A stretch of 49,574 nt of DNA from a virus: the IMG/VR virus record IMGVR_UViG_3300030320_000057; one strand, written 5' to 3'. The first letter of the stretch is position 1. Each line of letters opens with the position of its first letter. The notes under the pieces are model-generated. The model was not told the DNA's origin. It worked only from the letters and a program-made list of their open reading frames with translations, and did no database searches. The translations under genes were made by a program, and so were the position numbers. Of the stretch, positions 2,382-37,992 are shown piece after piece.

Positions 2382-2804
2382 ATGGCTGAATTTACAAATG
2401 TATTTGTTCAGCAGATCGCGGCTAATGGGAATGCAGTTTTCAGCGAAACGCCCGTTTCCGGCTCTAATTGTATTGTTCATCGGGATGGTTCTGGCATCAT
2501 CACTCTGCGGGGGATGACGAATCAGTGCCGTGCCCGTTACAAGGTGGTATTTGGCGGGAATATTGCCATCCCGACTGGTGGGGCAGTGGGCCCCATCTCC
2601 GTCGCTATCGCCGTGGAGGGCGAGGCCCTTGGAAGTGCGACAGCTGTTGTGACGCCTGCGGCAGTCGAGGACTTTTTCAATGTATTCGCTGCCGCATTTA
2701 TTGAGGTTCCCCGGGGCTGCTGTGTGACAGTGGCTGTCAAAAACACCTCCACAGAGACGATCGAGCTGGAAAATGCCAACGTGATCGTTGAGCGTGTATG
2801 CTGA
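2382..2804 (+). CDS. Small beta-rich protein, weakly BclA-C-terminal/C1q-like in pattern
   Basis: 140 aa with an alternating hydrophobic beta pattern and conserved Cys (GCC, terminal C). The family call is from memory only. Confidence 0.65.
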   Translation: MAEFTNVFVQQIAANGNAVFSETPVSGSNCIVHRDGSGIITLRGMTNQCRARYKVVFGGNIAIPTGGAVGPISVAIAVEGEALGSATAVVTPAAVEDFFNVFAAAFIEVPRGCCVTVAVKNTSTETIELENANVIVERVC

Positions 2805-2818
2805 AAGGAGATAACAAA

Positions 2819-3238
2819 ATGAAAGCACTGTATGAGCTGAAAGAGAAGTTTGAGATGGAGCTGGAGGAACTAGCTCGGAAGGGAGAGCTGGGCGCTGGCG
2901 ATTTGGAGCTGGCACACAAGCTCACCGACACCATCAAGAACATTGACAAAATCTGTGCTCTGGAGGAAGATGGTGGTTACTCTGAGGCAGGAGACTGGGA
3001 AGGGCGCGGGTCTTACAATCGCGGTTCCAGCTATGCCAATCGCGGCAAGCACTACGTTCGGGGCCATTACTCCCGAGATGGTTACAGCAATCGCGGCTAC
3101 AGCCGTGAAAGCGGTTACAGCCGACATGACGCAAAAGAGCAGATGATGGTCCAGTTGGAGGATATGATGGGCTCTGTGTCGAATGAGCGGGAGCGTGAGG
3201 CTATTCGCCGCTGCATGGAACAGCTGGACCGTGAGTAA
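2819..3238 (+). CDS. Hypothetical protein (coiled-coil N-terminus, Gly/Ser/Tyr/Arg-rich middle)
   Basis: AAAGGAG RBS 8 nt upstream of the ATG at 2819. Repeats of the form YSRDGYSNRGYSRESGYSR. Confidence 0.7.
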   Translation: MKALYELKEKFEMELEELARKGELGAGDLELAHKLTDTIKNIDKICALEEDGGYSEAGDWEGRGSYNRGSSYANRGKHYVRGHYSRDGYSNRGYSRESGYSRHDAKEQMMVQLEDMMGSVSNEREREAIRRCMEQLDRE

Positions 3239-3834: not shown

Positions 3835-5172
3835 TCAAACATTTAAGGAATATTCTATGTGCCTATCAGGGTATATTTTGATTTCTTTGACAATAATTCT
3901 CCAAAATTCTCGTTTTTCTTCGCGGTTGAGTCCGTCGTAAGATTCTTTCCAGTTTTCGGTTAACACCCTATCAATACTCTCGAAGTCTTGCTTTTGCTCA
4001 GGGAGTGCTGCTTTCTCCAAATCACTGATTTTTGCAAGCAATGCTTCACGGTCTGTCTTTAATTCTTCTAGTGTGATGATATCATTCAAATATAAATCCT
4101 TCAGTTTGTTTAACTTTGACTTTGCAGCAGAGATTTCCGCACGTGACCTTTTGTTGATTTCCGCATTTTTGAGAGCGGAAAAGTTGGCCTTGTATTCGTG
4201 AAATTTGTTGGCTACTGTCGCAAGAAGATACTCTTCAATTTTCCTTTCACCAAGATTAACGCGATTTTGGCATCCATTCTGCTTTGTATAGTGTCCGTTG
4301 CAATTGTAGAACACATACGTCTGCTTTGTGTTAATACGAGCACCCATCCTGTTGCCGCACTCCGGGCAAACCACTAATCCGGAAAACAGATAGGTACGAT
4401 TATTCTTTGCCTTTCGGACAACCTTCCTCCGCATAGCTTGAATTTGTTCATGATCTTCTTTAGTGATATAGGCAGGACACATTCCGTCCATATTGTAATA
4501 TTTCCCATAATATGTAGTGCTGCGCAGCATCTTATCAATAAGATGGTATCTCATTAAAACACCATATTTTTCTCTGATAAATTCGGAAGTTTTAGAAATG
4601 GAACCGGAGGCTAAATACTTCTTAAAGAAATCGTTAACAAGAGCCTCTTTGGATTCGTCTTTTTTGAATGATTTTCCTTCAATTTTATAACCAAAAGGTA
4701 TATTCCCGGTAAGAGGCTCCAACCGCGCCCGCTTTCCCTCAAAAACGAATTTGATACGCTCACTGGTCCGGTCTGCTTCATCTTGGGCAACGGACAACAT
4801 GATATTTACTTTCAGCCGCCCGGATGCGGTTGTCGTCTCATAATCCTCTTGTGTCGCCTGCCAAGATACACCATATTGATCTAGGATTTCCTGAACAGCA
4901 TAGTAGTTCCCCACATTTCTAAACCATCTGTCCAGCTTTATGAACAAGATCAGATCAATCTTCCCAGCCTTACAATCTTCAAGTAAACGCAAGAGAGCAG
5001 GGCGTTTCTTGTATGGTTTTCTGGCGGAAATGCCAGCATCTTCATAGATGCCAGCAATCTTCATTCCGTGAGATTTTGAAAATTGAGTCAGGTTGTTTTT
5101 TTGGTCCTCCAGAGATAGGCCGTGCCGCGCCTGTTCTTCCGTCGAGACGCGGATATATAGTGCGGCTCTCAT
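3835..5172 (-). CDS. Large serine recombinase (phage integrase)
   Basis: N-terminus MRAALYIRVSTEEQ (resolvase catalytic Ser motif), recombinase domain, Cys-rich zinc ribbon (CPECG...CNGH..C) and a C-terminal coiled coil. Confidence 0.95.
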   Translation of the reverse strand: MRAALYIRVSTEEQARHGLSLEDQKNNLTQFSKSHGMKIAGIYEDAGISARKPYKKRPALLRLLEDCKAGKIDLILFIKLDRWFRNVGNYYAVQEILDQYGVSWQATQEDYETTTASGRLKVNIMLSVAQDEADRTSERIKFVFEGKRARLEPLTGNIPFGYKIEGKSFKKDESKEALVNDFFKKYLASGSISKTSEFIREKYGVLMRYHLIDKMLRSTTYYGKYYNMDGMCPAYITKEDHEQIQAMRRKVVRKAKNNRTYLFSGLVVCPECGNRMGARINTKQTYVFYNCNGHYTKQNGCQNRVNLGERKIEEYLLATVANKFHEYKANFSALKNAEINKRSRAEISAAKSKLNKLKDLYLNDIITLEELKTDREALLAKISDLEKAALPEQKQDFESIDRVLTENWKESYDGLNREEKREFWRIIVKEIKIYPDRHIEYSLNV

Positions 5173-20957: not shown

Positions 20958-21170
20958 TTGAATGAGTTCCAGGATAGGCTGAGGAGGCTGAGGGAAAGTA
21001 TGCGGCCAGTTCGGAGTATGACAGTTACATCACAGCTGATGGGGCTAAGCCCTGATGCCTTACGAAAATATGAGAGAGGAGAAGTTGAGCCTAAAATGAC
21101 AGCTCTAAAGTTGATTGCAGCATATTATCACATCAGCCTAGACGAGCTTTGCAAAATGGAGGAAGATTAG
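20958..21170 (+). CDS. XRE-family HTH regulator (TTG start)
   Basis: SQLMGLSPDALRKYERGEVEP. Last protein gene before the noncoding region. Confidence 0.7.
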   Translation: MNEFQDRLRRLRESMRPVRSMTVTSQLMGLSPDALRKYERGEVEPKMTALKLIAAYYHISLDELCKMEED

Positions 21171-21332
21171 ACCATAAACTTTCATAATCTCATAGAAAAA
21201 ATAGCGAATTCATAAAGTTTTATGAGTGAGCGGAAATATGTATGCGAAAATGGGAGTGTGGGGGCGTATCTCTGCACTCCCACTCCTTTTCCTCTCTGCC
21301 CGGGGGTTCACCTCCGCCTCCGGGCCTCCTAT

Positions 21333-21411
21333 GCCCTTGTAGCTCAGTAGGAAGAGCGGCCCAGGAATATGGGTGATTGAAGCGTCGCCGGTTCGAGTCC
21401 GGCCGGGGGCT
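21333..21411 (+). tRNA. tRNA-like element with aberrant anticodon arm (possible pseudo-tRNA or module of a larger RNA)
   Basis: Acceptor stem gcccttg/cgggggc (two G-U pairs), D arm gctc-agtaggaa-gagc and T arm gccgg-ttcgagt-ccggc are canonical. The anticodon stem gccca/tgggt closes a 6-nt loop (ggaata), and 12 nt follow before the T arm. Confidence 0.55.
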
Positions 21412-21919
21412 TGGCAACCCGCACCTTTCGCGGTAGCCAACTTAGACCGCCCCCTTGTGAAACCTCCCCACAATCCGGGGATAGGTGTGTAACCTGGGGG
21501 TAATGCGCAGGGAGTGCCTTTCGAGGCTGGCCCTGCAAAGCAGACCGCTCCAAAGGCCACGGAGCTGACTGTGGAAAGACACTATACTGGCGAATCGGGG
21601 CCGCGTATCTTACCAGTGAAATCACCAGCGGCCTGCCAGTAGCCATAGCTGGCCGACTCCGGGCGGAATGGCAGCCTTTGAGAGTCAAGTGTGCCGACAC
21701 GGAGAAAGCGGCTGCGCCCGGCGGAGCGTGTAGAGACGGAATCCGCCCCAGTGGACCGGCCCAGCGGCATTGTGACGCTGTATTCTAGATGGCTGGACCA
21801 CGAAGCGCTGTCCCGCTGAAAACTGCATTTGCCGCTGAAAGGCTTCGTGCTACTGACCATATTGGATTTGGCTGCGGCGATGGGCAGATGTGTGACAATT
21901 AAGCGGAAAGCGCACATAT
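21412..21919 (+). ncRNA. Candidate large structured ncRNA, 5' portion (ROOL/GOLLD-class or novel)
   Basis: No credible ORF. Stems include 21507-12/21531-36 (enclosing the gcct-UUCG-aggc hairpin 21516-27) and gccag/ctggc at 21635-53. CCGCTGAAA is repeated at 21813 and 21832. Strand is inferred from the tRNA orientation. Confidence 0.45.
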
Positions 21920-21990
21920 ACGGGTGTAGCTCAATGGAGAGCGCCGGTCTCCAAAACCGGAGGTTGGGGGAACAGAGCCTTCCACCCGTT
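21920..21990 (+). tRNA. tRNA-Trp(CCA)-like with non-canonical T-loop
   Basis: Acceptor acgggtg/cacccgt (7 bp), D arm gctc-aatgga-gagc, anticodon arm ccggt-CTCCAAA-accgg. T arm ggggg-AACAGAG-ccttc lacks the TTC motif. Confidence 0.7.
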
Positions 21991-22237
21991 CCAGGGCGCA
22001 AGTCCTTACAGAATTTCTTGGTGAAAGGCAAGTGAGAAAAGCCGAAAAACTCACAGCTCCCCCGCAAAGGGGGATATGCCGCCCCGCAGTTGCACGAGAC
22101 GGGGGCGGGACTAATGGGAGGAAACGCATGGCGGGGTAATCTCCCACCGCCTCTCGAAAAATGGTTGAATACCGGGGATAGGCCGACGGGCCGAAAAGGG
22201 AGGTGCCACCTTACTCCTCTTCCCCGGGTCAACATAA
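21991..22237 (+). ncRNA. Candidate large structured ncRNA, 3' portion
   Basis: Helices gtgag/ctcac (22032-54), ccccc-GCAAA-ggggg (22059-73), ccgccccg/cgggggcgg (22079-22108) and ccgggg/ccccgg (22173-22228). Confidence 0.45.
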
Positions 22238-22273
22238 ATGGTGGAAACGAAATTTAAGAAAGGGTGGTTTTTT

Positions 22274-23026
22274 ATGGATGAATTGAAACTTATCAAATCC
22301 GAATCTTTCGGAAACGTGGAATGTGATTTTTATGGGGACGGAAGAGAAACGTGGATGACTAGAGAACAAATCGGGGTGGCGCTGGAATACAGTGATCCGC
22401 GTGTTGCGATTGCTAAAATTCATGCAAAAAGGAAAGACCGTTTGGACAGATTTTCAGTTGTTACCAAACTGGTATCAACTGACGGGAAGTCTTATAACAC
22501 AACCCTTTATAACCGCAAAGGCATCATGGAGATTTGCCGGCACAGCGATCAGCCAAAAGCCGATGCATTTATGGACTTCTGCTGGGAAGTCATGGATAGT
22601 CTCATGACGGGGAAAACGAAGCTGGTTGGCATGACGGAGTATCAGCAGATGATGGCTGAGACTCGTCGCAGAAATGCCCGTGTTCAATCCGCCCGCATTT
22701 TGACACAGCTTGCAAAGCAGTACCATGGAACTACATACGAACAGGTGCTGAACGCTCACGCCACAAAGGAGCTGACCGGAGAATATCTGCTGCCTCTTCC
22801 AAGATTGGAAACTAAGACATATAGTGCTGGAGAGATTGGGGAGATTCTTGGAATCAGCGGGAATAAAGTTGGAGCGATTGCAAACCAAAATGGATTAAAA
22901 AACGATAAGTATGGGCAGTGGTTTAAGGATAAGGCCAAGTGGAGCAACAAAGAGGTACCGGCATTTCGTTACTATGATAATGTAATTCCTGTACTACGTA
23001 AAATTTTAGACCAAGAAAAAATCTGA
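22274..23026 (+). CDS. Bro-N/antirepressor-like DNA-binding protein
   Basis: FGNVECDFYGDGRETWMTREQIGVALEYSDPRVAIAKIH follows the Bro-N pattern, with a C-terminal HTH-like YSAGEIGEILGISGNKVGAIA. Confidence 0.7.
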   Translation: MDELKLIKSESFGNVECDFYGDGRETWMTREQIGVALEYSDPRVAIAKIHAKRKDRLDRFSVVTKLVSTDGKSYNTTLYNRKGIMEICRHSDQPKADAFMDFCWEVMDSLMTGKTKLVGMTEYQQMMAETRRRNARVQSARILTQLAKQYHGTTYEQVLNAHATKELTGEYLLPLPRLETKTYSAGEIGEILGISGNKVGAIANQNGLKNDKYGQWFKDKAKWSNKEVPAFRYYDNVIPVLRKILDQEKI

Positions 23027-26811: not shown

Positions 26812-27548
26812 CACCGGCGATTACTCGCCGATGTTAAACCCCCAATATTTCAGCTCGGCGGCCCTTCTTGCCGCCGCCGCATCTTCGAGTGTATAAAAAG
26901 TGCCAAGGTTTATTTTCCCTTGGTCAGTCGCTATTGATGCCCGATAGACAATAACACCGTCTTTCCTTAGACGTTCATATACTCCAGCAACGCCGGTTGT
27001 ATTATTTTTCCTCGCTTTTCTGTTTTTCGAATTTTTCTTGTGGGTTGCCCATCGACAGTTCTCAGGAGAATATTCTTTATCTCCATCTATCCTATCAATC
27101 TCTAATCCATCTTTATATCCGCTTCTTATTGCCCAATCAACAAAAACATCAAAATCCTCCCACTCTGAGCAATAAGAAATGCCCTTTCCCTTATAGTACG
27201 CTTTGTTTGTTGCGTTTCCGTTACATCTTCGCCGCATTTCTGACCATGTATGGTACAAGCGGTTTGTATGTCGACGCAAAAAAAGAGGGGACTTGTTTTT
27301 ATTACACTTTCCACAAAACGTACTTTTGCCTGAACGCAGAGCATCTCCAGATACATCCCGTTCAACGCCACAGTCACATTTACATCTCCACATAACTGGA
27401 CGATTTCCGGGGGCAGATGATCGGAACAGAACAGTCCAATTCCCGAAATGCTTACCAGATAAATCAATAAGTTTGTTTGCCAAAGTATCATCTCCTATGT
27501 GGCCTATTATACCATGAAATCAGATAAAAAGCGATATAAAAATATATT
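26794..27548 (-). mobile_element. Free-standing homing-endonuclease cassette inserted in the minor capsid gene (approximate boundaries)
   Basis: AT-rich block carrying the HNH-AP2 ORF on the opposite strand. The host reading frame is interrupted after WQGKIF and resumes at SLAPYGG. Confidence 0.7.
26821..27483 (-). CDS. HNH homing endonuclease with AP2 DNA-binding domain
   Basis: HNH_3-like LEIDRIDGDKEYSPENCRWATHKKNSKN. AP2-like GVAGVYERLRKDGVIVYRASI...LGTFYTLEDAAAARRAAELKYWG. Confidence 0.9.
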   Translation of the reverse strand: MANKLIDLSGKHFGNWTVLFRSSAPGNRPVMWRCKCDCGVERDVSGDALRSGKSTFCGKCNKNKSPLFLRRHTNRLYHTWSEMRRRCNGNATNKAYYKGKGISYCSEWEDFDVFVDWAIRSGYKDGLEIDRIDGDKEYSPENCRWATHKKNSKNRKARKNNTTGVAGVYERLRKDGVIVYRASIATDQGKINLGTFYTLEDAAAARRAAELKYWGFNIGE

Positions 27549-28787: not shown

Positions 28788-28913
28788 CTTTTGACCGACC
28801 CGAAGTCGCTAAACTACGGGAGATTCAATTAAATTTGGCTATCCGCAAGCCTAAAAGTGCGGGGCGGTGGGTCACGGCAACGACCTAAAAAGCCTAGCCG
28901 CAAAGGAGAACGC

Positions 28914-29507
28914 ATGAAAACAGAAGAACTGCTTGAAATTGGACTGACAGAGGAACAAGCGACAAAAGTTTTGGCGATCAACGGGAAAGACATTGAACGA
29001 TACAAAAAGGCGGCAGATACAGCAAAGGCGGACCTTGAAGCGTCTCAGGAACAACTTTCACAGAGAGATGCGGATATTGAGAAGTTAAAAAAATCTGCCG
29101 GTGATGTGGATGGCATCAAGCAGCAGTTAGCTGACCTGCAGGCCAAGTACACCACGGAGACAGAGCAGTATCAGAAGCAGATTGCAGATCGTGACTATGC
29201 AGATGCTGTCAATCATGCGATTGCCGACAAGGGTGTAAAGTTCAGTTCTAAAGCCGCGGAAAAGGCGTTTGTTGCGGACCTTACCGCCAACCGCCTAACG
29301 CTCAAAAACGGGGCTCTGGAAGGGTTTGAAGATTACCTGAAGGCGCAGCAAGATAGCGACCCAGCTGCGTTCCAGGGGGACAAGCCTGCCCCGTCGTTTG
29401 CAAAGCCTGTTGGCCCTGGCGGGCCTCCTGCTCACGAGAGCAAAGGAGCCATGTACGCCAAGCAGTTCAATCAAATGTACGCAACCCAAAATACTACGAA
29501 GGAGTGA
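28914..29507 (+). CDS. Scaffolding protein (Phage_GP20-like)
   Basis: Coiled-coil, Ala/Lys/Glu/Gln-rich. Lies between the morphogenesis and capsid genes. AAAGGAGAA RBS. Confidence 0.85.
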   Translation: MKTEELLEIGLTEEQATKVLAINGKDIERYKKAADTAKADLEASQEQLSQRDADIEKLKKSAGDVDGIKQQLADLQAKYTTETEQYQKQIADRDYADAVNHAIADKGVKFSSKAAEKAFVADLTANRLTLKNGALEGFEDYLKAQQDSDPAAFQGDKPAPSFAKPVGPGGPPAHESKGAMYAKQFNQMYATQNTTKE

Positions 29508-34032: not shown

Positions 34033-34632
34033 ATGAGTTATGGACTGCCAAAAACCGTTGAAATAGACGGAGAAGAGTTTGCTATTCGCTATGATTTTCG
34101 TGTCATCCTTGACATTTTTGAAATTCTGAACGACCCAGATTTCAACGATCAAGAACGAGCTCTTGCCGTGCTCCAAATCTTCTATGTGGAATTTGACCAA
34201 CTGACGGATTATGACGCGGCGATTCAGAAGTGCTTTCGCTTTATTAACGGTGGAAGAGAAGAAATATCCAAACAAAAACAGCCGCAGCTGATTTCCTGGA
34301 AACATGATTTTTCTATGATTGTTGCCCCAATCAACCGAGTCCTTGGATATGAAGTGCGGGCAAAAGAATATGATCCGCAGACCAATACAGGAGGAGTTCA
34401 TTGGTGGACTTGGCTAGGTGCCTACATGGAAATTGGGGACTGCTTATTTGCACAGATCATTCGTATTCGGGAAAAAAGAGCACTTGGAAAACCGTTGGAT
34501 AAAGCAGACAAAGAGTTTTATAGAAAAAACCGGGATATCATTGACCTAAAAACACAGTACACCGATACAGAGCAAGAGCTTTTGAAGGCATGGACAAAAA
34601 GTAAGACGGCACCCGAAACAGGCACCGTCTGA
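34033..34632 (+). CDS. Bacteriophage Gp15-like protein (tail assembly)
   Basis: GLPKTVEIDGEEFAIRYDFRVILDIFEIL matches the Phage_Gp15 pattern from memory. Confidence 0.75.
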   Translation: MSYGLPKTVEIDGEEFAIRYDFRVILDIFEILNDPDFNDQERALAVLQIFYVEFDQLTDYDAAIQKCFRFINGGREEISKQKQPQLISWKHDFSMIVAPINRVLGYEVRAKEYDPQTNTGGVHWWTWLGAYMEIGDCLFAQIIRIREKRALGKPLDKADKEFYRKNRDIIDLKTQYTDTEQELLKAWTKSKTAPETGTV

Positions 34633-34640
34633 GGCATTCA

Positions 34641-34919
34641 TTACTGAGCTTTTTTCAATTCTTCAATTTGCCGGGTATGTATAGCCACCGTCTTTTCAAG
34701 ATCATCCACGCGATCTTCCATAATGTCTATAGCTTCTTGCGGGATCATTTTAGACCCCATTGAATCTAGCTTTTCAAACAATAATTTGAATTGTGGGGCA
34801 AATGTATTCTCAATGATTACCTGCATATTTGCCATAGACTCTTTGAGGATTTCTTTCTTCTGCTGCTCCATCATCGTATGAATCGCTTGCAGGTCCTTTT
34901 CATCTAGCATCCCGATCAC
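34641..34919 (-). CDS. Coiled-coil hypothetical protein (antisense moron)
   Basis: 92 aa on the opposite strand, in an AT-rich block. Confidence 0.65.
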   Translation of the reverse strand: MIGMLDEKDLQAIHTMMEQQKKEILKESMANMQVIIENTFAPQFKLLFEKLDSMGSKMIPQEAIDIMEDRVDDLEKTVAIHTRQIEELKKAQ

Positions 34920-35009
34920 CTCTTGTTTGCTATTATACGGGCTGGCTGGATAGCTGTCAAGAAACTACACCTTGAAAACTCAATAGAGATAGCAGGGGAT
35001 TCTACATTT

Positions 35010-35654
35010 TTACTGCTTTGAATAAGTAAACGCAATATCTTTTCCAGACCAAAAATCGGGGGTAAACTTCACTTCTATTGTGGACCATCCAGATGGAACC
35101 TCATATCCAATAACACCATTCATCTTTTTTCCTGCTGCAACAGAACCATCAAGCTGTTTCTGGTTGGTGCTCAACATTGCTGAAAGGTTCATTGAAGTAG
35201 AATAATCATCAACATAAGCTTCAAACGACATGATAGAACTAACGGCTATATCTGTGTCAGAATTATTTTCTATCTCAAATTCACAGACGATAAAAACGTT
35301 TCCGTCTGTTGGAGTCATATAATTTCCGCCGTTATTTTCAGAAACGTTAACCAAGGTTACATGAATATCATTTAAAGCAGCTGTTTCTCCAACATTAAAA
35401 ACAGTTTTTTCCTCGGTTTCTTTCTGAACATCTTCTGACTGTGTAGAATTATCTCCTTGATTATCTGATTGTACTAATTCTGGATTGCTGTTATCCCCAA
35501 ATATAGATGCAAAAACACCTATTAAAAAAATAGCAATAAGAATAAAAGCTACATTTTTTAAAGCGTGTTTTTGTTTCGCACCACATTGAGGACACATTTT
35601 TGCCGACTTTGCGATTTCAGCTCCGCAAGATTTGCATTTTGTCATCTTTCCCAT
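35010..35654 (-). CDS. Zinc-ribbon / TM / DUF4352-like extracellular domain protein (antisense moron)
   Basis: CKSCG...CPQCG, TM VAFILIAIFLIGVFASIF, and a beta-rich C-terminus (VTLVNV...FIVCEFEIENNS...GYEVP) typical of DUF4352. Confidence 0.8.
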   Translation of the reverse strand: MGKMTKCKSCGAEIAKSAKMCPQCGAKQKHALKNVAFILIAIFLIGVFASIFGDNSNPELVQSDNQGDNSTQSEDVQKETEEKTVFNVGETAALNDIHVTLVNVSENNGGNYMTPTDGNVFIVCEFEIENNSDTDIAVSSIMSFEAYVDDYSTSMNLSAMLSTNQKQLDGSVAAGKKMNGVIGYEVPSGWSTIEVKFTPDFWSGKDIAFTYSKQ

Positions 35655-35763
35655 TCCAAATACCCTCCATTTTTCTTTAAAATATCAAAAAACAAGTAAA
35701 AGTATATTTTCTATACAAATCCCCTCCTCAATATATAAAACCGCTAGGAAGCAAGGTGATCTT

Positions 35764-37992
35764 ATGGCCGCTGATGGCTCTATTGTAATTGATGTTGATC
35801 TTGATAATAAAAAGGCGCAACAAGAACTGAACAAACTAAACAAAAAAATTGAGAGCTTAAATGATCAGATTTATATTAAGCAGCAACAACAAATGCCGTT
35901 GATTGAACAATCTAGGCAACTTGGGGCAGAGCTGGATGCTGCAAAAGCAAAACTAGAAGGAATGAGAAGCGGCGGCGAGTTTTTCACGTCTTCCAGTATC
36001 AATCAGCAGGCAGAAAAGGTAAAGCAGCTCCAAAAAGAATGGGATGCTGTGCAGAAAAAGGTGGAGAGCTACGATGCTTCTATTGAGAAAACCAACATTG
36101 CCCTTAATCTGACCAAAGAAAGAGCGGGAGATATTCAAAAGCAACTTGCATCTTCTGGACCAAACACAGAAATAATGTCACAGGCCATGGAGCGGATGCA
36201 AAAGAGCGCCGGAAAGTTTTCCATGAGACTACGAGAAGTGGTACGAAGCGCGTTGATTTTTACGGTGATCTCTCAGGGACTTGCCTCTCTGCGAGAATGG
36301 TTCGGAAAGGTCATTAAAACCAATGACGAAGCGACTGCGGCCATCGGTAGATTAAAGGGGGCCCTCCTTACATTAGTACAGCCCCTAGTAAATGTGATTA
36401 TACCAGCATTTACAGTATTTGTAAATGTTTTGTCGAGAATCATTACAGCAATCGCTAATGTTGTTTCCATGCTGTTTGGAAGTACCATTAAACAATCTGC
36501 ACAGGCAGCGGAAGGACTGAACAAAGAAGCTGAGGCTTTAGAAGGAGTTGGGGCGGCGGCAGATGAGGCTTCCGGATCACTAGCCGGGTTTGACGAAATT
36601 AATCAGTTGGCAGGGGAATCCAAAGACGGCGGGGGCGGCACTGCTGGAAACAACATTGCGCCGACATTTGACTTTGAAGAACAAGACACAGGGATTCTTG
36701 ATAAAATTTTAAACCTTGTCAAATTGATCGGGACAGCGTTGCTATATTGGAAAATTCCCGCGCAGTTTAGAAACGGTTTAAAGACTCTCTTGGGGTTATT
36801 TCTTGCGCTAGATGGTGCAATCGAATTTATCAGGAATACATTTGACGCATGGGTAAACGGTGTTACATGGGACAACCTCCTAGGAATGCTTTTAAGGGCG
36901 GCTGAACTTGTGGCAGGGCTTTGGTTAGTTTTTGGACGAGTCGGAGCGGCCGTTGGCTTGATCGTAACGGGTTTGACAATGCTTGTAACCGGATTCAGAG
37001 ATGCGTATGAAAATGGGTGGAACTTACAAAATCTGATTCTCTCTATCGCGGGAATTTTGGCAACGGGAGCGGGGATCGCACTTTTCATAGGTTCCTGGAT
37101 TCCAATGCTGATTGCAGGAATTGCGGCTATTGTCTTGGCAATTACGACCGCTTACGGACAAGGAGAAGCCTTATTAAACGGAATTCGAATGATTCTGCAA
37201 GGATTTATTGACTTCTTTGTTGGAGTATTTACAGGAAACATTGAACAGGCTGTCGCGGGAATTACTGGAATTTTTGATGGTCTTAATATTGCGATTACAG
37301 CGATTTTTGACGCAATCGAGACTATGATTCAAAGCTTCCTAGACTGGTTGGACGAAAAAACCGGCGGCGTACTCAGTCCTATTATTGATACAATTAAGAA
37401 TTTGTTTAGATCCGCGTTTGATGGAATTAGAACTACTGTTACGAATGTAATTAACGCTATTGAACAAATTTTTACAGGGTTGGTTCAATTCATTGGAGGC
37501 GTTTTTTCCGGAGACTGGGACCTTGCATGGGAAGGGATTAAAAATATTTTCAAAGGGGCTTGGAATGGAATTGTCAGTGTGATCGAAAGCGCCATTAACC
37601 TGATTATCAGCGGGATCAATAAACTGCTAGACGGCCTCCAAGCATTGACAGCTTTTGAACTCCCGGACTGGTTGGGAGGCTATTCGTTCAAAGGAATCAA
37701 CATTCCAAGAATTTCAAAAGTATCAATTCCGCGCTTGGCACAGGGCGCAGTGATTCCCCCCAACCGGGAATTCCTGGCTGTCTTAGGAGACCAGCGGAGC
37801 GGAACCAACATTGAAGCGCCGCTTGATACCATCAAGCAGGCGGTAGTGGAAGCCATGCGAGAGGTTGGTGGACAGGGGAATGGCACGATAACGGTAGTTG
37901 TCAATTTGGACGGGAGAGAGGTCGCAAGAAACACGGTTAACCATATTAACCGCATGACACAGCAAGCCGGAAAGCCGGTTCTAAACTTCTGA
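35764..37992 (+). CDS. Tape measure protein
   Basis: 742 aa with an N-terminal coiled coil, a hydrophobic Gly/Ala/Ile/Leu-rich core, and the expected position. Confidence 0.9.
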   Translation: MAADGSIVIDVDLDNKKAQQELNKLNKKIESLNDQIYIKQQQQMPLIEQSRQLGAELDAAKAKLEGMRSGGEFFTSSSINQQAEKVKQLQKEWDAVQKKVESYDASIEKTNIALNLTKERAGDIQKQLASSGPNTEIMSQAMERMQKSAGKFSMRLREVVRSALIFTVISQGLASLREWFGKVIKTNDEATAAIGRLKGALLTLVQPLVNVIIPAFTVFVNVLSRIITAIANVVSMLFGSTIKQSAQAAEGLNKEAEALEGVGAAADEASGSLAGFDEINQLAGESKDGGGGTAGNNIAPTFDFEEQDTGILDKILNLVKLIGTALLYWKIPAQFRNGLKTLLGLFLALDGAIEFIRNTFDAWVNGVTWDNLLGMLLRAAELVAGLWLVFGRVGAAVGLIVTGLTMLVTGFRDAYENGWNLQNLILSIAGILATGAGIALFIGSWIPMLIAGIAAIVLAITTAYGQGEALLNGIRMILQGFIDFFVGVFTGNIEQAVAGITGIFDGLNIAITAIFDAIETMIQSFLDWLDEKTGGVLSPIIDTIKNLFRSAFDGIRTTVTNVINAIEQIFTGLVQFIGGVFSGDWDLAWEGIKNIFKGAWNGIVSVIESAINLIISGINKLLDGLQALTAFELPDWLGGYSFKGINIPRISKVSIPRLAQGAVIPPNREFLAVLGDQRSGTNIEAPLDTIKQAVVEAMREVGGQGNGTITVVVNLDGREVARNTVNHINRMTQQAGKPVLNF

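Follow-up and report, generated by a model that had tools for sequence, protein, structure and literature searches.

The DNA considered here, called the window throughout, is the IMG/VR virus record IMGVR_UViG_3300030320_000057 at its full length of 49,574 nucleotides (nt). It is a temperate siphophage-like genome with a Flavonifractor-like host (Oscillospiraceae). Between the gene of a small helix-turn-helix (HTH) regulator and the gene of an anti-repressor (Ant) lies a noncoding stretch, positions 21171-22273, which an earlier note, made from the sequence alone, took for a candidate giant structured RNA of about 1.1 kb, possibly of the ROOL/GOLLD class. We find that this stretch is a composite cassette and that it harbours a new, unnamed family of structured RNAs associated with phage tRNA islands, set apart from the candidates of a previous IMG/VR screen (Fremin et al. 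2023, PMC10690425) by description only. Conservation, covariation, strand, modularity, and genomic context of this RNA are matters of direct observation. The borders of the stretch are:

20958-21170: gene of an XRE-type HTH regulator of 70 aa, upstream border
22260-22276, plus strand: ribosome-binding site AAGGGTGG and ATG of Ant, read directly; end of the noncoding cassette
22274-23026, plus strand: Ant gene, PHROG anti-repressor matches down to 1.6e-37; downstream border

All genes adjoining the stretch are on the plus strand. In the PHROG scan Ant is followed by terS, terL, and portal, which bears out the statement of the earlier note that the stretch is located just upstream of the packaging genes.

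A mosaic cassette without genes

The view that 21171-22273 is noncoding is upheld by evidence from open reading frames (ORFs), frames, and indels. When minus-strand ORFs are ignored the gap extends over ~1,070-1,100 nt compared to 333 nt for the next longest one, and GC content is 0.594 at 21501-22000 versus ~0.49 elsewhere; both the exceptional length and the GC-richness had been pointed out before. The minus-strand ORFs are not genes because the 217-aa ORF has no match to a PHROG family and overlaps RNA genes on the opposite strand, i.e., a tRNA and an Rfam motif. Homologous copies of the stretch are separated by many indels, and no conserved protein gene is present at this place in related phages. 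The closest GenBank relative is Flavonifractor phage Chenonceau (ON453904) with ~82% identity in patches and the same gene order. There, two 'hypothetical proteins' (WAK79791, WAK79792) are annotated over the region of the tRNA-like/minihelix and int-alpA elements (locus 2750-3233). The frame of the Chenonceau plus-strand ORF2 is broken in the window by a frame shift and a stop codon. Probably, both annotations are false gene calls.

The idea of a single RNA of ~1.1 kb did not survive the comparison with related phages. Of this stretch, nothing but the 5' hairpin and the last 280 nt (21991-22268, 85% identity) is shared by Chenonceau; its middle part is different and shorter. When an IMG/VR relative (L002; loci are designated by L numbers) is aligned with the window, 100%-identical blocks alternate with unrelated blocks and extra insertions. 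Because of this mosaic conservation 21171-22273 cannot be considered as one RNA. It consists of several separately conserved modules, and among these is a conserved structured RNA outside of Rfam, so that the 'new class' option of the original proposal stands and the giant RNA does not. Depending on the modules present the RNA is ~60-510 nt long, with a universal core of ~60-100 nt and full forms of 190-510 nt. The window copy of ~380-500 nt is located between two tRNA-like elements (about 21412-21919). This middle RNA is absent from all 50,697 GenBank phage records, in which Chenonceau is the sole match, in the 5' hairpin and the last 280 nt.

A universal 3' module and optional 5' parts

The core of the RNA family is a 3' module, which in the window is composed of the following parts:

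21803-21918, plus strand: universal 3' module
21805-21809/21909-21913, plus strand: closing stem Pa
21812-21816/21903-21907, plus strand: closing stem Pb
21817-21824 opposite 21892-21902: asymmetric internal loop, UGAAAACU opposite GUGACAAUUAA; the family strand is GUGACAAUYUAAGCG
21825-21830/21886-21891: variable hairpin P7; its interior has 55 nt in the window and 4 to ~86 nt across the family

A search pattern made from the two loop strands retrieved 116 stretches from IMG/VR and no fewer than 119 from metagenomes, mostly from human gut. The alignment of 42 distinct sequences of the 3' module demonstrates covariation among homologues. In the proposed pairing 88.2% of the cells are paired, compared to 78.5% in shuffles (none of 500 reached the observed value) and 30-53% with slid partners. 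In 51 cells both partners are changed, and as many as five pair types are found at one position; those of P7 are CG, GC, AU, UA, and GU. G-U pairs are frequent, e.g., at the first P7 pair in 27 of the 42 sequences, where the opposite strand would have A-C mismatches. Thus, the structure resides on the plus strand.

In the window a single copy is detected by a covariance model of the 3' module (R1), whose training set includes the window sequence; the score is 60.3 bits (E = 4e-18). With this model no copy was found in Chenonceau or in nine loci which encode an Ant homologue. The 3' module stands alone directly past promoter-proximal hairpins in L080, L098, L104, and L154. Elsewhere it follows varied 5' domains, one of them with an internal T-arm/ACCA element. 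One phage contig, L013, carries two copies (1368-1510 and 1943-2027).

In the window the 3' module is preceded by an optional 5' domain, designated 'type a', and by further optional parts:

21411-21440, plus strand: linker hairpin D, which recurs in L034, L040, L047, and L073
21451-21536, plus strand: optional domain, including GCAGGG/CCCTGC around a UUCG hairpin
21547-21686, plus strand: 5' domain 'type a' of the new RNA
21547-21565, plus strand: P1 hairpin
21566-21583, plus strand: invariant UGAC, then P2 hairpin with an invariant GAAAGA loop
21587-21590/21613-21616 (PK1) and 21599-21604/21628-21633 (PK2), plus strand: H-type pseudoknot
21635-21653 and 21655-21686, plus strand: hairpins P5 and P6
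21689-21801, plus strand: optional insert ('G domain') with hairpins 21689-21700, 21720-21747, and 21751-21801

The 18-mer GGAGCTGACTGTGGAAAG (window 21561) is present in 56 IMG/VR stretches; the stems which flank it differ in sequence and remain complementary. The P2 stem is encountered in four compensatory forms (UGUG/CACU, GGUG/CACU, UGCG/CGCU, and ACCCCG/CGGGGG). Compensatory changes are also evident in PK1, PK2, P5, and P6, where within one type 95% of the cells are paired compared to a shuffle maximum of 92% and to 34-49% with slid partners. At least three sequence types of the 5' domain exist, two of which have the pseudoknot topology in common. The optional domain 21451-21536 is absent in L002, present in L013, and has a varied form in L088. 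The optional insert is found in L002, L013-L019, L028, L087, and L129 and is absent from most homologues; its hairpin 21751-21801 is formed by CAGCG/CGCUG with the 3' bulge UAUUCUAGAU. In L056 (8070-8500) and L078 a second copy of a P1-like hairpin, GCGCUCCAAAGGCCACGGAGC, points to an internal duplication. In the same L056/L078 locus a DUF3800-VIII motif (RF03075, 53.4 bits) is located ~100 nt downstream of the RNA.

The nine helices which the earlier note had traced by eye are all present at or near the positions given there; the density of helices for which they were cited is statistically unremarkable. The confirmed helices are:

21251-21282: 14-bp hairpin
21507-21536: GCAGGG/CCCTGC around the UUCG hairpin
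21635-21653: identical with P5
inside 21751-21801: CAGCG/CGCTG
21800-21847: CGAAGC/GCTTCG, with CCGCTGAAA present twice; confirmed in this copy
22032-22054, 22059-22073, and 22078-22108: three helices
22173-22228: CCGGGG/CCCCGG

The helix 21800-21847 competes with the pairing supported by covariation. It would sequester the conserved loop strand and is unsupported by the family alignment. The two copies of CCGCTGAAA are at 21815-21823 and 21832-21840, 17 nt apart, the second one within the P7 extension specific for the window. Together with GCTTCGTG (21843-21850) this second copy may form an alternative helix with 21798-21805 which masks the conserved loop, in this one sequence only.

Flanking elements and known RNA families

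The RNA is embedded in further elements upstream and downstream:

21210-21225: palindrome TCATAAAGTTTTATGA, candidate operator for an activator
21243-21251, plus strand: extended -10-like motif TGCGAAAAT, consensus TGnGAnAAT, abutting the 5' hairpin
21251-21292, plus strand: 14-bp hairpin (21251-21282) with the pyrimidine-rich tail CTCCTTTTCC, flagged by a terminator scan
21299-21324, plus strand: hairpin CCCGGGGG...CCTCCGGG between 5' hairpin and tRNA-like element 1, present in the minimum free energy (MFE) fold
21333-21411, plus strand: tRNA-like element 1; Rfam tRNA, 40.6 bits; ARAGORN 'tRNA-???' with a 2-base anticodon
21920-21993, plus strand: tRNA-Trp(CCA)-like element; Rfam tRNA match at 21920-21990, 53.3 bits
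21993-22151, plus strand: string of hairpins (21993-22007, 22017-22032, 22032-22054, 22059-22073, 22078-22108, 22116-22151)
22171-22241, plus strand: int-alpA motif (RF02996), three-way junction; the ribosome-binding site of Ant follows ~30 nt downstream

The 3' end of the palindrome precedes the -10-like hexamer by 20 nt; in the family as a whole this distance is 20-24 nt. With transcription assumed to start ~7 nt past the hexamer, the centre of the palindrome would fall near -40. Its position is fixed in 38 distinct upstream variants, among which its sequence changes symmetrically (TTCCCCTCGCAAGGGGAA, TTCCCACAAAAGTGGGA, TTGTCCTTTTTTGGACA); it probably acts as DNA. In most of these variants the -10-like motif likewise has a fixed position, with TGCGAAAAT 16 times and TGCGACAAT nine times. 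TGCGAAAAT is a candidate promoter of the noncoding cassette and of the late operon. A simple sigma-70 scan did not call the motif at 21243-21251 because a -35 element is missing. The 14-bp 5' hairpin is conserved in Chenonceau and in many loci; with its tail it would be either a terminator-like attenuator or a 5'-terminal stabilising hairpin. L002 has the hairpin 21299-21324 in identical form; in L080, L098, L104, and L154 the 3' module comes immediately after it.

Two tRNA-shaped elements had been recognized earlier, and both were retrieved above the gathering score of 29 of the Rfam tRNA model (RF00005). In element 1, which L002 carries unchanged, the acceptor, D, and T arms are present, but the anticodon loop has 6 nt and the variable region is long. 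The tRNA-Trp-like element starts 2 nt past the 3' module and was not called by ARAGORN; its 3' CCA is encoded, its T arm is aberrant with AACAGAG as the T loop, and L002 and L060 have the same sequence. Neither element has both a 7-nt anticodon loop and a GTTCRANYC-type T loop, the features of a canonical elongator tRNA. The string of hairpins at 21993-22151 is 85% identical to Chenonceau and recurs in other loci past a minihelix-CCA element.

The last 70 nt of the stretch belong to a known family and are separate from the new RNA. The int-alpA match is above the gathering score (47.5 versus 35.8 bits, E = 7.8e-7 for the whole window) and covers model positions 1-71 with all three helices. The motif is also present in Chenonceau (L001 3177-3246, 49.6 bits), L002, L073 (6586-6653), and L138 (1509-1579). 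Going by the family name and the enterobacterial papers citing it, int-alpA is usually tied to int and alpA genes of proteobacterial prophage-like elements. The window motif differs as it is from a Firmicutes phage and is located upstream of Ant, not between an integrase and alpA. Since the gathering score is passed in Firmicutes gut phages upstream of Ant, the int-alpA family may be broader than its name suggests.

The context across the family was scored on 84 non-redundant loci, and tRNAs called by ARAGORN were counted within 1.5 kb of the module. All 58 such tRNAs are on the module strand; 12 of them begin 14-20 nt past the module. In 31 of the 84 loci a minihelix, GCCGCUCCUCGCCGCAUGAGGCGGGCGGUGGCACCA, which ends in GGTGGCACCA, is found within 120 nt of the module. 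It consists of an acceptor-like stem, a hairpin, and an encoded ACCA (e.g., L031, L037, L052, L014, and L001 at ~2955-2995). It looks like a minimal substrate of RNase P and the CCA enzyme used as punctuation. In L117 one copy of the module is inserted in an array of at least nine tRNAs. The protein genes most often found next to the module are, upstream, that of a small HTH regulator (in 43 of 84 loci) and, downstream, terS, terL, portal, or Ant. Among species-representative genomes exact matches to the motif are limited to Oscillospiraceae (Colidextribacter, Muriventricola, and an uncultured metagenome-assembled genome); a 20-mer of the 5' domain is present in three Oscillospiraceae genomes.

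Rfam was searched with the whole window at gathering score, with 21100-22320 at E<=10, and with related loci, 13 at gathering score and nine at E<=1. No family covers the new RNA, neither in the window nor in the 22 related loci. The suggested membership in ROOL or GOLLD was not confirmed: both models lack a match in 21100-22320 and in the 22 loci. The other models named for a check, tmRNA, group I/II intron, and RNase P, equally gave no match at E<=10.

GOLLD and ROOL are encoded by phages or prophages, often beside or containing tRNAs, and are ornate RNAs with pseudoknots and of unknown function; in GOLLD the 3' region is conserved, the 5' region varies, and the linker in some cases contains tRNAs (PMC5737381, PMC12286853). 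The new RNA is similar to both in its phage location, its tRNA-like flanks, the same-strand tRNAs throughout the family, and its pseudoknot, and to GOLLD in the conserved 3' and variable 5' region. It differs from both by the absence of a covariance-model match, its smaller size, its host range (Oscillospiraceae gut phages), and its architecture: hairpins, one H-type pseudoknot, and an internal-loop module compared to the six multistem junctions of ROOL.

Apart from tRNA, a single Rfam family, cow-rumen-3 (RF03083), matches any part of the new RNA, at 21723-21846 with 23.5 bits versus a gathering score of 86.7 (E = 0.0075; 20.3 bits in L002). Genuine cow-rumen-3 was retrieved by an AT-rich pattern (3 of 120 were genuine, the rest mostly chance matches). 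The genuine copies in L366 and L335 (130 and 121 bits) are in phage tRNA arrays and flanked by same-strand tRNAs. Two of their features recur in the window: the CAGCG/CGCUG hairpin, whose 3' bulge of 10 nt includes CUAG, and the A-rich segment 'AAAACU(A/G)C', which has a hairpin next to it on the 3' side. However, in the window the CAGCG/CGCUG hairpin belongs to the optional insert, not to the universal core, and genuine cow-rumen-3 lacks the GUGACAAUYUAAGCG strand and scores only 5 bits with the 3'-module model. The tRNA array of L366 (9488-14260) contains cow-rumen-3 (130 bits) together with cow-rumen-4 (65.6 bits); therefore several Rfam 'cow-rumen' motifs appear to be residents of tRNA islands.

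Phage T4 encodes 'species 1' and 'species 2' RNAs (rnaC/rnaD), which are small, stable, non-tRNA molecules co-transcribed with tRNAs and of unknown function. They are released by tRNA-processing enzymes and may be a functional analogue; the phage lineage is unrelated. The IMG/VR screen mentioned at the outset (PMC10690425) reported a total of 8,495 candidates without names, some of which are tRNA-like structures or motifs located in front of terminase genes; its text describes no motif with the features of the new RNA, and the new RNA or pieces of it may be among these candidates.

Several other assignments were tried and rejected. A group I/II intron had no Rfam match at E<=10, and the flanks are complete tRNA-like units, not gene halves. 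RNase P, Y RNA, pRNA, and self-cleaving ribozymes had no Rfam match at E<=10 either. GCU GAA AAC UAC resembles the frame of a tmRNA tag, but the pattern of covariation downstream of it is that of a helix, the peptides are unconserved, and ARAGORN found no tmRNA. The RNase P-like segments GGAAAG and ACAAU..AAGCG are not complementary as P4 requires, and GGAAAGA is the loop region of a covarying hairpin. The long-range helix GUGG/CCGC suggested by RNAalifold was dropped in favour of the covarying P2 hairpin and the Pb stem. By inspection, the internal loop sequences do not fit the consensus of a K-turn or a tetraloop receptor.

Elsewhere the window contains a replication module and a serine-recombinase integrase (3835-5172). 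Scans against Pfam and PHROG gave no RNA-partner protein among the neighbours of the RNA, be it a reverse transcriptase, Ro/Rsr, RtcB, or another one. A GP20-b RNA motif (RF03003) at 28837-28896 on the plus strand (59 bits, gathering score 36.2) overlaps the start of the ORF 28857-29507 in the head-morphogenesis region and is the second Rfam cis-regulatory motif in this phage. Two islands of low GC content (0.36-0.41) and reversed GC skew, 26821-27483 (minus strand) and 34500-36000, interrupt the plus-strand structural operon; the former holds a 220-aa minus-strand ORF. These islands may be morons or recently acquired genes.

A proposed excised RNA, or a possible leader of the late operon

We propose that the cassette gives rise to a plus-strand RNA which is excised at tRNA-like processing sites and acts in trans, in a context like that of ROOL and GOLLD. 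We consider the chances of this proposal to be even. The elements of the cassette are arranged in the order palindrome and promoter-like TGnGAnAAT, hairpin, degenerate tRNA-like element, modular RNA, tRNA-Trp-like element with CCA, hairpins, and int-alpA in the 5' untranslated region of Ant. The cassette is located at the head of the late (packaging) operon and would be transcribed as one precursor from its own regulated promoter. The tRNA-like and minihelix-CCA flanks would serve as handles for RNase P and RNase Z/exonuclease, through which the structured RNA would be set free late in infection as a molecule of its own that is stable. The released RNA may then act in trans via its conserved loop nucleotides, by protein binding, ligand binding, or self-assembly. 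Such a lifestyle would be akin to those of GOLLD, ROOL, cow-rumen-3, and the T4 species 1/2 RNAs. The RNA is dispensable in related phages, being absent from Chenonceau and from the nine loci with an Ant homologue.

Several points weigh against this proposal. In terms of folding energy the window copy has no significant advantage over shuffled sequences; MFE z-scores are -1.68 (21412-21919, plus strand), -0.60 (minus strand), and -0.96 (21994-22273). The case for structure is built on the comparative evidence, not on these energies, and there the shuffle controls overstate independence because many family members are closely related. Cleavage by RNase P and RNase Z and stability of the RNA would follow from the tRNA-like flanks only, and recognition by RNase P is not guaranteed because these flanks have defective anticodon or T arms. 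The fixed position between a small HTH gene (43 of 84 loci) and terS/terL is compatible with cis regulation, too. In L024, L047, and L071 the module is directly followed by a ribosome-binding site and ATG, in L075, L091, L125, and L140 by a hairpin instead of a tRNA-like element. For these modules a cis-acting leader fits as well.

The main rival, then, is a leader of the late operon whose modules remain part of the mRNA and exert control over it. Conceivable modes are processive antitermination or, at the promoter-proximal hairpin, attenuation, with lambda pR'-tR'/Q, HK022 put, and EAR RNAs as analogues; riboswitch-like sensing; or control of mRNA stability and of Ant/terS translation. Besides the position and the close neighbourhood to start codons or hairpins, the conserved promoter-like motif with a terminator-like hairpin right after it and the location of int-alpA ~30 nt from the Ant ribosome-binding site are in line with such a role. 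We nevertheless regard it as somewhat unlikely. The module is also present within a pure tRNA array (L117), the first gene usually is several hundred nt away, beyond tRNA-like elements at which cleavage would be expected, the module is missing from relatives that share the late genes, and no alternative terminator/antiterminator pairing overlapping the module was seen. A DNA element, i.e., a pac site, an origin, or operators for terminase or regulator, would suit the location directly upstream of terS, which is a place of pac sites and late promoters, and the palindrome 21210-21225 probably does function as DNA. Yet for the module itself this is very improbable: G-U pairs are tolerated on the plus strand only, the pairing includes pseudoknots and hairpins of variable length, the orientation always is that of the neighbouring tRNAs, and copies are located in tRNA arrays far from terS.

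We judge it equally improbable that the cassette is a decaying tRNA island, in which blocks are conserved by common ancestry and recombination and not by function. The defects in both tRNA-like elements, the alternation of 100%-identical and unrelated blocks between the window and L002, and the near-identity of many family members would agree with decay; compensatory changes which keep several helices across divergent copies, and loop nucleotides which are invariant while stems vary, do not. Furthermore, the 3' module is not tRNA-like and its structure is kept in very different flanks. A divergent ROOL or GOLLD, the leading idea of the earlier note, shares the context, phage or prophage DNA beside tRNAs (PMC5737381; PMC12286853). 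We give it hardly any credence in view of the missing matches (at E<=10 in the window, E<=1 in nine loci, gathering score in 13), the dimensions (core ~60-100 nt, full form 190-510 nt versus an average of 581 nt for ROOL and often >800 nt for GOLLD), and an internal-loop module with a pseudoknot domain in place of six multistem junctions. Scarcely more tenable is a protein-coding function, either of the minus-strand ORFs, which measure 116-217 aa, or of small plus-strand ORFs like the two 'hypothetical proteins' annotated over the Chenonceau counterpart. The 217-aa ORF lacks a PHROG match and overlaps a tRNA and an Rfam motif on the opposite strand, the Chenonceau ORF2 frame is broken in the window, indels are many, and all neighbouring genes are on the plus strand.

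With respect to annotation, phage Chenonceau illustrates that gene callers place probably false 'hypothetical proteins' on such a region. Within noncoding operons of phages, degenerate tRNA-like elements and minihelix-CCA elements may serve as punctuation marks.

A far-reaching notion, which we entertain with considerable doubt, is that this RNA, abundant in human-gut Oscillospiraceae phages, founds a third class of tRNA-island phage RNAs beside GOLLD and ROOL and has a sophisticated function after excision. If this were true the internal-loop module and the pseudoknot domain may drive an RNA-only higher-order assembly. Alternatively, the RNA may capture or mimic a component of translation or tRNA metabolism and in this way aid late infection or blunt host defences which target tRNAs. 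GOLLD and ROOL are large tRNA-linked phage RNAs which build RNA-only cages. The new family has the same genomic habit, is smaller, modular, and common in human-gut phages, and could help to approach the question which GOLLD and ROOL pose. Natural minimal (~60 nt) and composite (~500 nt) versions, together with module-free relatives as ready controls, make it a tractable comparative system.

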